Origin: a virus
DNA: 64,000 nucleotides
Direction: 5' to 3' (one strand)
IMG/VR virus record: IMGVR_UViG_3300032285_000709
Span: 10,856 to 74,855 of that record
Shown: in pieces, positions 50,977 to 54,425 of the stretch
Layout: each line of letters opens with the position of its first letter
Numbering within the stretch: position 1 is the first letter of the stretch
The notes under the pieces: generated by a model
Database searches by the model: none
Seen by the model: only the letters and a program-made list of their open reading frames with translations
What the model was told of the DNA's origin: nothing
Translations under genes and position numbers: made by a program

Positions 50977-51348
50977 ATGAAACTATACGAATTTTTTAGC
51001 CATCTCAATATCAACTCTGATAAGTCGCAAGAAAAGACCGCCGACGAAAAATATGAAATGACTCTCGAAGAAAAAGAGCAATTTAAAAATGAGTTATTCT
51101 TTTATATTCTAGATCACGACGATATACATCGTAAGCATTTTCATGATATAGCAGAACACATTACAGACGAATCCAAACCTAGTGTGTGGATGCCAATTGT
51201 TAACAAAGGCTGTATGGAATTCCACGACGCTAATAAAATACTACAACATCCTCGAGATATGTTCGACAAACAGATGCGCGAAGAACTATGCAACATGTTA
51301 GACGATCACTATCGTAAAGATATCAAGAAAGGCGAATACCGTCCATGA
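50977..51348 (+). CDS. putative head-internal protein (MKLYEFF leader)
   Basis: capsid-targeting-like N-terminus. Confidence 0.6.
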   Translation: MKLYEFFSHLNINSDKSQEKTADEKYEMTLEEKEQFKNELFFYILDHDDIHRKHFHDIAEHITDESKPSVWMPIVNKGCMEFHDANKILQHPRDMFDKQMREELCNMLDDHYRKDIKKGEYRP

Positions 51349-54300
51349 ATTTACTAGAGTTGTTTTCTAGACCACGCCCCTTATTAGAAGGTGGTAACTT
51401 AGAATTAGATAACCCTAATGATCCATCCGCACCTTATCAGGCAGACGAGATTGATCTTAAGGTACATAATCGCACCTTTATGGTTGGGTTATTAGATAAA
51501 CTGTTACACGATATCAACGTTGCATTTTATAAGAAAAATAAAAAACCATTGTGGAATCCACAGTTGTTACAATCAAAAGAGTTCTTAGGCGGAAGCAGTT
51601 TACATTTCTTTAATACCAAAGGTATTAGCGATAAAGAATTTGCTAAACATAAACCGAAAGTTGGAGATATTGATACACAATGTAACAAAGAACTCGAGCC
51701 AGCGGTTGAGCAATTTTTAACAATGTACGATCACAAACAAATAGGTGATACAACATTATTAGGATTCAGTAGAGGAAGCGAACAATTTAATGCTCTATTC
51801 CAATTTCAAGATCCTCCCATTAAGATACAAATAGACTTTGAGTTTGGAAAGTATGACGAAAAGACAGACATGCCAGATGAGTGGTATCGTTTCAGCCATA
51901 GTTCAGAATGGAATGATATACAAGCAGGCATCAAAGGTGTATTCCACAAATACATATATCGTGCATTAACTTCTGCGCACGGTAGCATTAAACATCAAGT
52001 CGATGTTAAGAAAACAAAAACAAATATTAAACCAAATATTGCTGATAATGATTTGTCATTTGCAGTAGCAAGCGGACAAGGCGGTGGTCTAAGCCACAAG
52101 TACGAGCCATATATTCACACAGATCCAGAAACAGGTCAAAAGAAAACTCACGATCAAGGAGTTCCTTATAAGAGACTGATTCCGTCCGGTGAAAGAAAAT
52201 ACATTCAAAAACTAGATCAACAATTCTTTTTCTTTTTTGGTGCAAAGCCCGAGGGCAATGATAGCCAACTACAAAAAAGTTTCTTAGGTACATTAGAGTT
52301 AATCAACAAATATATCAAAGACGAATCGGCTAAAGAAAATGTCTTTAGAGCATTTTTAACATTATGTTTCGAACCTGGTGGGCAAATGATTACTAAGAAC
52401 GATCCAGAGCGAGATCAAGAGATCAAATTTGCGGCTATTGATAACTTTATACAAAAATGTAAACTTAAGAATCTAAGACCCGAAGCTATAAAGATGGGTA
52501 AAGAATACATAGACGATTTTAAAGAAGTCCAAGATTATAAAGCAAAGAATCCTAACGAAAAACAACCACGTGCCGCTCTAAAGCGTATGAAGGCAGGCCT
52601 AAACGAAGCCGAAGTAAAAGCACAACTACGTAAGGGCATGCCTCACTTGCATGATTTAAAGGCACCTGATTTTTTGGACCTACTAGATGAGATCCACGAC
52701 GGTAATGGTAAGTTTAAACTAGAAAATATTCCACTAAATGTTAAAGTAGACGGCTTCGGCGGGCGCTTTGGTAAGAATGCCGAAGGTAAACCTTTCATGG
52801 GTACAAGTCGTACTGAACCTCGTTATCAAGCAAGTTTTGTAGACTATCATCAAAAGAAAGGCACAACGGATCCAGAGATTCTAGGTCGTGCTCAAATGTT
52901 TGATGACTTGTTTAACGAAATGATGAAGGCTATTGAATTAGTTGATAGTAAACTAGGTCCAGACTTTTTAGTAAACAAACAAGTAACTTGCGAAGTATTG
53001 TTCTTGCCATTTGCTACAGAAACTCCAGAAGGTAAATTAAAGTTTGTAGGCATTCATTACGACAAACTTCCAAAAGGTGTACAGTTAGCTCTAGTACCTT
53101 TCCATGCTGTAGAAGCAGACAGCGGAGAAGCTGTTCAAGATACTAAATTTATTGATAAGTTGCTAGGTGTAGGGAACCAAGGTAGTGTTATGTTTATTAA
53201 CAATAGACTAACACAAAAAGAAGGCCTCGATGTAACTGAGATTATTAATCCATTAGATAACATCGAAGAACTTAAATCAATAGTGGCAGGTACAGCAGGT
53301 AAGCGTGATCGTGCAAGCCTGCAACTTAGAAAAGAAATAGAAGAAAAACTACAACCTATCAAAGACAAATTAGAACAGGCTATTATTAAAGATCCTAATA
53401 TCATCGGCAAAGACATGTTAGGTAAAGACTACGAAGGTATCGTTATTAACAGTCGCCTCGGTCCTATTAAAGTAACAAGCCAGGAACAACGAAATGTTAT
53501 CCAAGCAAAGCAAGATGCTAAGGCAAATGCTCGCACAGAACGCCCACGCGGTGAGAATAAAACAGCCGTAGTTGCTATTGGTAGCTTTGTTGGACACATA
53601 GGTCACGAACAATTATTCGATTATACAATCAAGAAGGCCGCACAAGTAGGCGGCGATCCGTATTTGTTTATCGGAAATGCTGAAGGCAAAGACGATCCTA
53701 TACCACCAGCTGTTAAAGTACAGACATGGCATAAAATGTATCCACAATATGCTAACAACATTAGTACTGTTACACAACAGGGCGGAACATTAATGCAGAA
53801 AATCAAGCACGAGTTGATTAATCCTCTACCAGGCAAACCACCACGCTACGATAATATTATTATTATGGTCGGTGAGGATCAGGCTAAAATGCCTATTGCA
53901 AATGCATTGATGAAATCAGTTAATAAATTTGAAGGGTACGAGCATGTTAAGGTAAGTTTAGAAGCTACTCCGCGAGGAACAGGTATGAGCTTTACTAAGC
54001 TACGTAACATCCTAAAAGATCCCAATGCTACACCAGAGCAACAATATGCTGTATGGGCCAAAGGGTTTGATGTTAAAAAATTAGGCAAGGAATGGATTAT
54101 GAGATTAATGGAATTAACTCGCAAAGGTATGGGCATAACTGCTCCTGCTAAGAAAGGCATACACCCAGATGCCGCACAACCAGTTAAGTTGCCCAAGCAA
54201 AAAGCGCCAGCAGAAACAATGGCCGGGGTCGGCATGCAAGATAATCCAGAACGCAATGCTGTTGCATTTGAAGAAAAGCAAAGATTAGATCCTAAGTGCT

Positions 54301-54425
54301 GGAAAGGGTATCGCAAAGCCGGAACTAAGATGAAGGGCGGAAAACGTGTAAATAACTGTGTTCCAGTCAGCGAAGAAGTTGAAGACTTGATAGCTGGATA
54401 TATTAAATTGTTAGAAAGCAAATGA
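51345..54425 (+). CDS. multidomain protein: pol-beta-type NTase + ligase-like (KxDG) + HIGH nucleotidyltransferase + CWKGY module
   Basis: LGGSS/GDID/QIDF; KVDG/EVL/EGIV/K; GHIGH/SFTKLR. Confidence 0.7.
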   Translation: MNLLELFSRPRPLLEGGNLELDNPNDPSAPYQADEIDLKVHNRTFMVGLLDKLLHDINVAFYKKNKKPLWNPQLLQSKEFLGGSSLHFFNTKGISDKEFAKHKPKVGDIDTQCNKELEPAVEQFLTMYDHKQIGDTTLLGFSRGSEQFNALFQFQDPPIKIQIDFEFGKYDEKTDMPDEWYRFSHSSEWNDIQAGIKGVFHKYIYRALTSAHGSIKHQVDVKKTKTNIKPNIADNDLSFAVASGQGGGLSHKYEPYIHTDPETGQKKTHDQGVPYKRLIPSGERKYIQKLDQQFFFFFGAKPEGNDSQLQKSFLGTLELINKYIKDESAKENVFRAFLTLCFEPGGQMITKNDPERDQEIKFAAIDNFIQKCKLKNLRPEAIKMGKEYIDDFKEVQDYKAKNPNEKQPRAALKRMKAGLNEAEVKAQLRKGMPHLHDLKAPDFLDLLDEIHDGNGKFKLENIPLNVKVDGFGGRFGKNAEGKPFMGTSRTEPRYQASFVDYHQKKGTTDPEILGRAQMFDDLFNEMMKAIELVDSKLGPDFLVNKQVTCEVLFLPFATETPEGKLKFVGIHYDKLPKGVQLALVPFHAVEADSGEAVQDTKFIDKLLGVGNQGSVMFINNRLTQKEGLDVTEIINPLDNIEELKSIVAGTAGKRDRASLQLRKEIEEKLQPIKDKLEQAIIKDPNIIGKDMLGKDYEGIVINSRLGPIKVTSQEQRNVIQAKQDAKANARTERPRGENKTAVVAIGSFVGHIGHEQLFDYTIKKAAQVGGDPYLFIGNAEGKDDPIPPAVKVQTWHKMYPQYANNISTVTQQGGTLMQKIKHELINPLPGKPPRYDNIIIMVGEDQAKMPIANALMKSVNKFEGYEHVKVSLEATPRGTGMSFTKLRNILKDPNATPEQQYAVWAKGFDVKKLGKEWIMRLMELTRKGMGITAPAKKGIHPDAAQPVKLPKQKAPAETMAGVGMQDNPERNAVAFEEKQRLDPKCWKGYRKAGTKMKGGKRVNNCVPVSEEVEDLIAGYIKLLESK

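Follow-up and report, generated by a model that had tools for sequence, protein, structure and literature searches.

A candidate head-cargo precursor with three nucleotidyltransferase domains in a giant T4-related phage

Introduction

Why would a phage string three nucleotidyl-transfer enzymes together in one polypeptide and set a short leader in front of them? The question is raised by an open reading frame (ORF) at nucleotides (nt) 51345..54425 of a 64,000-nt stretch of viral DNA, positions 10,856 to 74,855 of IMG/VR record IMGVR_UViG_3300032285_000709. We call this whole stretch the window and number it from its first letter. The ORF lies on the plus strand, as do all its features described below, and encodes 1026 amino acids (aa) plus stop, here called the main protein. 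The record itself is a 74.9-kb viral contig, estimated to be 21% complete. Judged by the relatives of the family B DNA polymerase in the window (Sinorhizobium phage Phosso, the best, at 51%; the E. coli 121Q group and Agrobacterium phage Atu_ph07 at 42-44%), the source phage is of the giant T4-related myovirus type.

To our knowledge, few injected phage enzymes have been described: T4 Alt, virion RNA polymerases and anti-restriction proteins. In T4, the protease gp21 cleaves after L/I-x-E, as first observed at a Glu-Ala bond, and the internal head proteins carry targeting propeptides of 10-19 residues, with Alt being trimmed at both ends (PMC9026906). With Asp in place of Glu at P1, processing in T4 is prevented and targeting is not.

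A first-pass annotation, made from the letters of the DNA, had called the main protein a candidate injected enzyme of RNA repair or signalling, and every motif that it named is present in the ORF. Here we propose that the protein is a cargo precursor of the phage head, which would be processed, injected and set to act on broken polynucleotide ends. Taken as a whole, we hold this explanation to be moderately probable.

Results

Three nucleotidyltransferase domains in one polypeptide

An exhaustive HMMER search returned 1919 relatives of the main protein, among which each of three parts also occurs as a stand-alone protein (aa ~10-395, ~415-725 and ~735-935). Conservation was scored in an alignment of 51 full-length homologs, whose identity over the domain-2 segment falls as low as about 33%, and all catalytic-type residues were invariant in these 51 sequences. 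The idea that three different nucleotidyl-transfer chemistries share one chain, already present in the first-pass annotation, thereby holds: structure prediction and Foldseek place domains 1 and 2 in the expected folds, and domain 3 is identified by motifs and profiles.

Domain 1 (51390..52607, aa 16-421) opens with an invariant GGN and is built of a palm, a thumb-like part and a helical tail. It carries the motifs LGGSS (aa 81-85, nt 51585-51599), GDID (aa 107-110, from nt 51663) and QIDF (aa 162-165), and its invariant residues in the 51 homologs are G83 and S84 (nt 51591-51596), D108 and D110 (nt 51666-51674), D164 and E166 (nt 51834-51842), and K197. An AlphaFold2 model computed from 47 stand-alone homologs reached a predicted local distance difference test (pLDDT) of 92.3, and G83-S84, D108-I-D110 and D164 are invariant in that set as well. 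In the model the catalytic residues fall on helix 83-88 and on strands 108-114 and 159-168. The domain thus shows the features of the Pol-beta superfamily: an hG[GS] motif, [DE]x[DE] on the next strand, a third carboxylate later and the minimal alpha/beta fold. The top solved structures in Foldseek are family X polymerases, at middling scores (E about 1e-3). Structural matches to the catalytic core (aa 20-314) come from one superfamily; unrelated helical proteins reach similar scores only against the helical part (aa 325-405). The family X alignment is restricted to palm and thumb (model 20-314 with Pol mu 275-494 and Pol beta 141-335), and the helix-hairpin-helix and 8-kDa parts of these polymerases are not seen in the model. 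From this model, domain 1 is a Pol-beta-superfamily nucleotidyltransferase.

Two narrower assignments of domain 1 were tried. Membership of RlaP, the Pol-beta enzyme that accompanies RNA ligases, was rejected by sequence (no PF10127 match at E up to 1), and a cGAS/CD-NTase identity is not favoured, its cGAS/OAS matches being no better than those to other Pol-beta enzymes. A structural search of BFVD with domain 1 yielded family members, a distant Atu_ph07 relative and weak matches to giant-virus Pol X proteins, and no named function. The distant relative, A0A2L0UZB9, is a 277-aa protein of the cultured 490-kb phage Atu_ph07 (Foldseek E 1.4e-7) that tblastn had missed.

Domain 2 (52608..53519, aa 422-725) has a nucleotidyltransferase fold in its model (pLDDT 94.1). 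Its motifs are KVDG (K467-V-D-G, aa 467-470, nt 52743-52754), which is motif I, CEVLF (aa 549-553), YEGIV (aa 696-700) and PIKV (aa 707-710). The motif residues K467 (I), E550 (III), F567 and Y572 (IIIa), E697-G698 (IV) and K709 (V) are invariant in all 51 homologs, together with D469, G470 and T711. The last of these occupies the second position of motif V, as an invariant Thr in place of Lys. A C-terminal OB domain and motif VI are absent from domain 2, where a single helix after motif V runs straight into domain 3 and OB-like strands are lacking. Sequence searches of Pfam and PDB gave no match for aa 411-735, the named RNA ligase families (Pfam RNA_ligase, RNA_lig_T4_1) included. Domain 2 models as a covalent, RNA-ligase-like nucleotidyltransferase. 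A capping enzyme or DNA ligase was considered as well and rejected, since OB domain and motif VI are missing and RNA ligases rank higher structurally.

Domain 3 (53547..54149, aa 735-935) is, by its motifs and profiles, a HIGH-superfamily nucleotidyltransferase, cytidylyltransferase-like and NMNAT-like. It contains GHIGH (aa 750-754, from nt 53592), with an invariant HxGH (H751-I-G-H754, nt 53595-53606), and SFTKLR (S882-F-T-K-L-R887, aa 882-887, nt 53988-54005), in which S882-x-T884-x-x-R887 is conserved. The residues invariant in 51 of 51 homologs are G746, H751, G753, H754, D784, P785, G843, D845 and R887. The domain matches phrog_3041, 'cytidyltransferase' (E 1.6e-13), and its language-model neighbours are viral CTP_transf_like clusters (score 0.94). 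Other matches are fainter. FAD_syn, the sole Pfam match, gives 16-17 bits, below its 27-bit cut-off, and RibF is the PDB match (phmmer, profiles), both confined to the HxGH stretch; beyond this RibF stretch, the same PDB searches gave only low-complexity noise. PF01467 matched 1 of 21 members at 1e-3, and hhalign against a PF01467 protein of Xanthomonas phage BUDD was weak (probability 48%, E 1.8e-4). Synthesis of NAD+ is our leading guess for its activity, drawn only from the NMNAT-like motif pattern.

A T4-type leader and an internal cleavage-type site

What holds the precursor together, and could it come apart? The N-terminal leader (51345..51389, aa 1-15) ends L-L-E and is a candidate capsid-targeting propeptide with a predicted cut after E15; its 15 residues fall within the 10-19 of T4 propeptides, and its end follows their L/I-x-E rule. 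Among 160 distinct homolog leaders that precede the invariant GGN, mostly 5-24 aa long, P1 is Glu in 158 and P3 is Leu or Ile in 150. Homologs with an extra N-terminal domain show the junction again, as h-x-E|GGN. Many homologs are leaderless and begin M-GGN; in phage BUDD and in the Vibrio phage Va1 an in-frame stop lies just upstream, which makes M-GGN the real start there. Removal of the initiator Met by methionine aminopeptidase would expose the same G-G-N end as cleavage after Glu.

The second site had been noticed in the first-pass annotation as an LNE between domains 1 and 2, and comparison strengthens it considerably. It lies at 52599..52607 (aa 419-421), followed by Ala422, and is a predicted prohead-protease cleavage site. 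[LIVM]xE occurs in 99% of 141 distinct linkers between these domains, against 40% in composition-matched shuffles; no enrichment is seen for [LIVM]xD and similar control patterns. Its P1' residue is Ala in 121 of the 141, and it stands 5-16 residues ahead of the first conserved Arg of domain 2. In the models, low-confidence residues border on ordered ones at both sites; leader residues 1-10 have pLDDT <50 in the domain-1 model. No conserved cleavage-type site was found between domains 2 and 3 in the homolog alignment.

Behind domain 3 the picture is less sharp. A Pro/Lys/Ala-rich linker (54150..54275, aa 936-977) ends F-E-E, a possible, weaker site; of 77 distinct sequences, 70% have [LIVMF]xE ahead of the following module (31% in shuffles), in a region where the alignment is gappy. 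That module, the small basic 'CW' module (54276..54374, aa 978-1010; C..W..G..Y … N-N-C-V-P-V-S-E), resembles the tails of many unrelated phage families (phrog_4359, 9737, 38880, 727, 22379). It takes varied positions in homologs, usually with hxE after it (VSE conservation 0.71). The last 16 residues (54375..54422, aa 1011-1026) form an acidic, amphipathic tail that is kept in many homologs and may be a C-terminal propeptide. Of all these predicted cuts, only the first two, after E15 and E421, are well supported.

Relatives with a protease, and one in virions

Genes for a gp21-like protease (Peptidase_S77) occur in the cultured phages BUDD, Va1 and CP220, and one lies in a related contig of 143 kb. 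A relative of domain 1 has also been seen in virions. In Campylobacter phage vB_CcoM-IBB_35, the 44.4-kDa product of gene 1-56 (39251-40417; 'no homologs') is one of 38 virion proteins identified, by tandem mass spectrometry of purified virions, at 17% coverage (PMC3322345, Table S2). We find that this product is a domain-1 homolog, aligning over aa 13-381 (BLASTP, E 1e-24), and that it carries an 11-residue leader ending I-L-E|GGN. As a way of listing all cargo, the simple N-terminal leader pattern is too unspecific, since 4 of 91 window ORFs match it.

In the first-pass annotation the enzyme was packaged and injected. The T4-like leader, the L/I-x-E junctions, the proteases of relatives and the virion-detected homolog all speak for this. 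Packaging of the main protein, as read from these features, is supported, not proven.

The same enzymes as a fusion and as a string of genes

Full-length relatives of the main protein number 758 in metagenomes, on contigs of up to about 350 kb, and none of them is named. Database relatives are all 'hypothetical', domain 1 belongs to a PHROG family without assigned function, and we found no description of this three-enzyme fusion in the literature. No phage record matched the main gene by blastn, and a search for shorter stand-alone domain-2 proteins gave mostly contig-end fragments.

Cultured phages are reached by tblastn: CP220-like phages of Campylobacter and Va1-like phages of Vibrio have domain 1 alone, whereas Xanthomonas phage BUDD has domain 2 as well. 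In BUDD a domain-1 gene, an uncharacterised gene, a domain-2 gene and a bona fide PF01467 cytidylyltransferase-like gene follow one another head to tail. The three-enzyme association is thus kept in either form, fused or as a row of genes, and this argues for enzymes that work together. The intervening BUDD gene (6849-7850 of the BUDD piece examined) encodes 333 aa with no Pfam match and may be a fourth component.

Some longer homologs carry extra domains after the three enzymes: an HD_4/HD phosphohydrolase in one (P0036), and Amidoligase_2, DUF6934 and a second NTP_transf_2 in another (P0157). With short modules being shuffled in neighbouring ORFs as well (see below), the precursor behaves as a carrier of variable cargo.

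RNA-repair genes in the same record

Is there any sign that this phage invests in RNA repair? At 390-3890 of the 10.9-kb stretch that precedes the window in the same record lie genes for a Ro-like DUF2828/DUF7788 protein, a DSP-type phosphatase (Swiss-army-knife-like) and a PNK-like kinase (AAA_33 match, 68 bits), followed at 3916-8840 by genes for tRNA-Leu, Gly, Thr and Arg. Judged by its gene content this cluster is an RNA end-healing module, with no ligase beside it, and its presence in the same record argues that the phage does make such an investment.

Genomic setting

The main ORF is preceded by a ClpA/B-like ATPase gene, and genes for a DUF6321 protein and the family B DNA polymerase follow it. 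The ATPase (47562-49841, +) is a full-length double AAA+ protein of the ClpA/ClpB type (phrog_4871, E 8e-253), about 1.5 kb upstream of the cargo gene cluster. Directly ahead of the main gene lies a 123-aa ORF (50977..51348, +) to which it is translationally coupled, its start ATG sharing bases with the upstream stop in an ATGA overlap. The 123-aa product has no Pfam or PHROG match. Its N-terminus is hydrophobic and acidic, resembling the leader of the main ORF, and its C-terminus resembles the N-terminal extensions of four homologs (P0056, P0062, P0078, P0081) that end K-h-M-E|GGN. In other phages, then, its counterpart is fused ahead of domain 1 through an h-x-E|GGN junction.

Downstream, at 54422-56566 (+), four small or basic ORFs carry short modules: a DUF7230-like one, DUF6321, a G-K-N-P-G-R-K-G-L-A-K-R motif and a terminal W-L-A-N-M-K-x-G-K-A-K tail. 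These modules reappear as extensions, at the C-terminus or between domains, in homologs of the main protein, often bounded by h-x-E, and from their sequences they look like shuffled head-cargo modules. Elsewhere in the window, a 185-aa ORF (21273-21830, +) begins with ten residues ending I-A-E, then Gly, a very T4-like targeting propeptide; it sits upstream of a giant 3129-aa ORF at 23479-32868.

Discussion

A proposed path from prohead to host

We envision the following sequence of events. The 15-residue leader would bring the precursor into the prohead core, where a gp21-type protease would cut after the Glu of L/I-x-E, at E15, creating the new N-terminus G-G-N, and at E421 (LNE|A); further cuts may take place on both sides of the small basic C-terminal module. 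The products would be the leader (aa 1-15), domain 1 (aa 16-421, 46.6 kDa), a fusion of domains 2 and 3 of about 61 kDa (aa 422 to about 977), a basic peptide some 33 residues long and the 16-residue acidic tail. Ejected into the host along with the DNA, the processed enzymes would act on 3'-OH/5'-phosphate ends, most likely of RNA, for example of nuclease-cut tRNA. Domain 1 would add back one or a few lost nucleotides, as RlaP does next to RNA ligases, and domain 2 would seal the break through a lysyl-AMP at K467. Domain 3 would make an adenylylated small molecule, perhaps NAD+ from nicotinamide mononucleotide (NMN). Being made in advance, these enzymes could act before any phage protein is translated.

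The comparison with RlaP is what points to RNA. RlaP proteins, defined by comparative genomics as Pol-beta enzymes accompanying RNA ligases, extend the 3' ends of damaged RNA by one or two nucleotides, which makes the repaired tRNA functional (PMC7824862; bioRxiv 10.64898/2025.12.29.696909). Domain 1 shows the same kind of linkage, being fused to the ligase-like domain 2 and encoded as its neighbour in BUDD; by this analogy the fusion follows the RlaP logic with a different Pol-beta family. RNA end repair is accordingly the most likely role that the analogy suggests for the main protein. The fullest version of the idea goes further: a complete end-repair kit of nucleotide adder, ligase and cofactor synthase, pre-loaded into the heads of giant T4-related phages, released from its polyprotein by the protease and injected, would undo the tRNA or RNA cleavage, and perhaps the NAD+ loss, inflicted by abortive-infection systems before translation begins. 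In this version, the permanently fused ligase-HIGH enzyme may also represent a new kind of coupled ligation: the HIGH domain would supply the adenylate donor, and the ligase, whose motif V is altered, would use it. This version we put forward tentatively, as less likely than not.

Several observations weigh against these proposals. Cleavage, packaging and injection have been observed neither for the main protein nor for its fused homologs, and a prohead protease gene was not found in the window's own record, a 75-kb fragment that is 21% complete. Lists from virion mass spectrometry can include contaminants, and the authors of the IBB_35 study reported no processing (PMC3322345). Leaderless homologs occur in BUDD and Va1, which encode gp21, so the enzymes need not be packaged. 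On the side of function, the polyprotein contains no end-healing activities of the kind that 2',3'-cyclic-phosphate/5'-OH breaks require, so that alone it fits 3'-OH/5'-phosphate breaks. Domain 1 stands alone in the Campylobacter and Vibrio phages, and thus can work without domain 2. It is also not detectable as RlaP by sequence (PF10127, E up to 1), and structurally it overlaps most with family X DNA polymerases, which makes a DNA substrate a live alternative. Domain 3, finally, is assigned from motifs and profiles only.

Could the kit act on DNA instead? A packaged Pol-X-like enzyme and a ligase could fill and seal nicks or gaps, or join or circularise the ends of the injected genome against exonucleases, much as polymerase mu works with a ligase. 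The overlap of domain 1 with Pol X enzymes speaks for this. But only palm and thumb align, no helix-hairpin-helix or 8-kDa part being seen, domain 2 lacks the OB domain and motif VI of DNA ligases and has RNA ligases as its first-ranking matches, and domain 3 would be left without a role. We regard a DNA-end function as unlikely, while still taking it seriously.

An injected Pol-beta enzyme could also serve host takeover by nucleotidylating host tRNA 3' ends, in the manner of MenT, or protein (AMPylation), so that the host is shut off or redirected, with the ligase-like and HIGH domains serving a related modification. A domain 1 that occurs alone in virions would suit such an effector. Yet the fusion or adjacency of a Pol-beta enzyme and a ligase is a recognised repair signature, and toxin-like matches are weaker than those to polymerases or TUTases; we consider an effector of this kind quite improbable.

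To the same low degree we credit the idea that the protein never enters the head, and that it is an ordinary cytoplasmic enzyme of early or middle infection whose conserved Glu, both ahead of GGN and in the linker, has a part in folding or activity. The gene does sit among replication and chaperone genes, with the ClpB-like ATPase upstream and the family B DNA polymerase downstream, leaderless homologs exist, and no protease gene was seen in the 75-kb record. Against this, the Glu is dispensable in the proteins that start M-GGN, the pattern of P3 Leu/Ile, P1 Glu and P1' Ala is retained in linkers that are otherwise unalignable, leader length agrees with T4 propeptides, and a domain-1 homolog was detected in virions.

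The first-pass annotation also entertained interference with nucleotide second messengers. Read as a cGAS/CD-NTase-like domain 1 that would make or consume cyclic-oligonucleotide immune signals, this role found no specific support and is very hard to credit, because cGAS/OAS matches do not outscore those to other Pol-beta families and extend over a smaller part of the model than the Pol X matches, and because the fused ligase points to polynucleotide ends.

Known systems

The preferred reading, head cargo acting on broken ends, relates the main protein to two known kinds: T4-type targeted head cargo, and the repair pair of a Pol-beta enzyme and an RNA ligase. With T4 IPI-III and Alt it shares a short propeptide (10-19 aa in T4) ending L/I-x-E, cleavage-type Glu residues often set before Ala, and a gp21-family protease in relatives; possible C-terminal processing, and the proposal that enzyme cargo travels with the DNA, recall Alt in particular. 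Unlike these proteins, it is one precursor of several enzymes, with internal sites and small basic modules, known here from sequence rules, and its predicted chemistry is nucleotidyl transfer rather than the ADP-ribosylation or nuclease inhibition of T4 cargo.

As in RlaP, including T4 NrdC.11, a Pol-beta nucleotidyltransferase with a helical C-terminal part is linked to an RNA-ligase-type enzyme. Domain 1 differs in lacking a PF10127 match and in having an extra beta-rich, thumb-like part that resembles Pol X; moreover, RlaP proteins are cytoplasmic, none of them being known to travel as virion cargo, whereas domain 1 is proposed to be head cargo. Domain 2 shares with the RNA ligases Rnl2/REL1, Rnl3 and Rnl5 (Naegleria NgrRnl) the nucleotidyltransferase fold, the lack of an OB domain, motifs I, III, IIIa and IV and, in motif V, the first Lys. 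It departs from them in having no sequence-level family match, in the Thr at the second position of motif V and in the fused HIGH nucleotidyltransferase that replaces the usual accessory domain. Domain 3 resembles NadM, NadR and NadD (NMNAT) and the phage PF01467 enzymes in its HxGH, its SxTxxR, its length of about 200 aa and its PHROG 'cytidyltransferase' match, and the PF01467 gene of BUDD holds the equivalent position. Unlike NadM, NadR and NadD, it stays below Pfam thresholds, and neither a Nudix or kinase partner domain nor a NadV partner was seen with it.

The multi-domain, module-shuffled organization recalls the polyvalent proteins of phages and conjugative elements and the ejected proteins of phiKZ-like phages, both thought to be delivered with DNA. 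The polyvalent-protein survey reported no association with RNA ligases (Iyer et al. 2017). In the phiKZ-like giant phages, ejected proteins are cut after Glu by a gp21 relative at S/A-x-E, whereas the motif here is L/I-x-E, as in T4.

What it would mean

The family offers three uncharacterised enzyme types with intact active-site motifs, among them a ligase whose motif V is unusual and which is fused to a HIGH nucleotidyltransferase. The Campylobacter phages of the CP220/IBB_35 group provide a cultured handle, with a leader-bearing domain 1 and the virion detection from IBB_35, and the short leader and its cleavage rule could be reused for loading foreign proteins into large phage heads. If our reading is right, the T4 principle of capsid targeting extends from small internal proteins to multi-enzyme polyproteins in a widespread family, and the repair of RNA or DNA ends joins what phages can bring to bear in the first minute of infection. 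Once tRNAs are cut, repair enzymes can no longer be translated; a kit packaged in advance would thus solve the bootstrapping problem.

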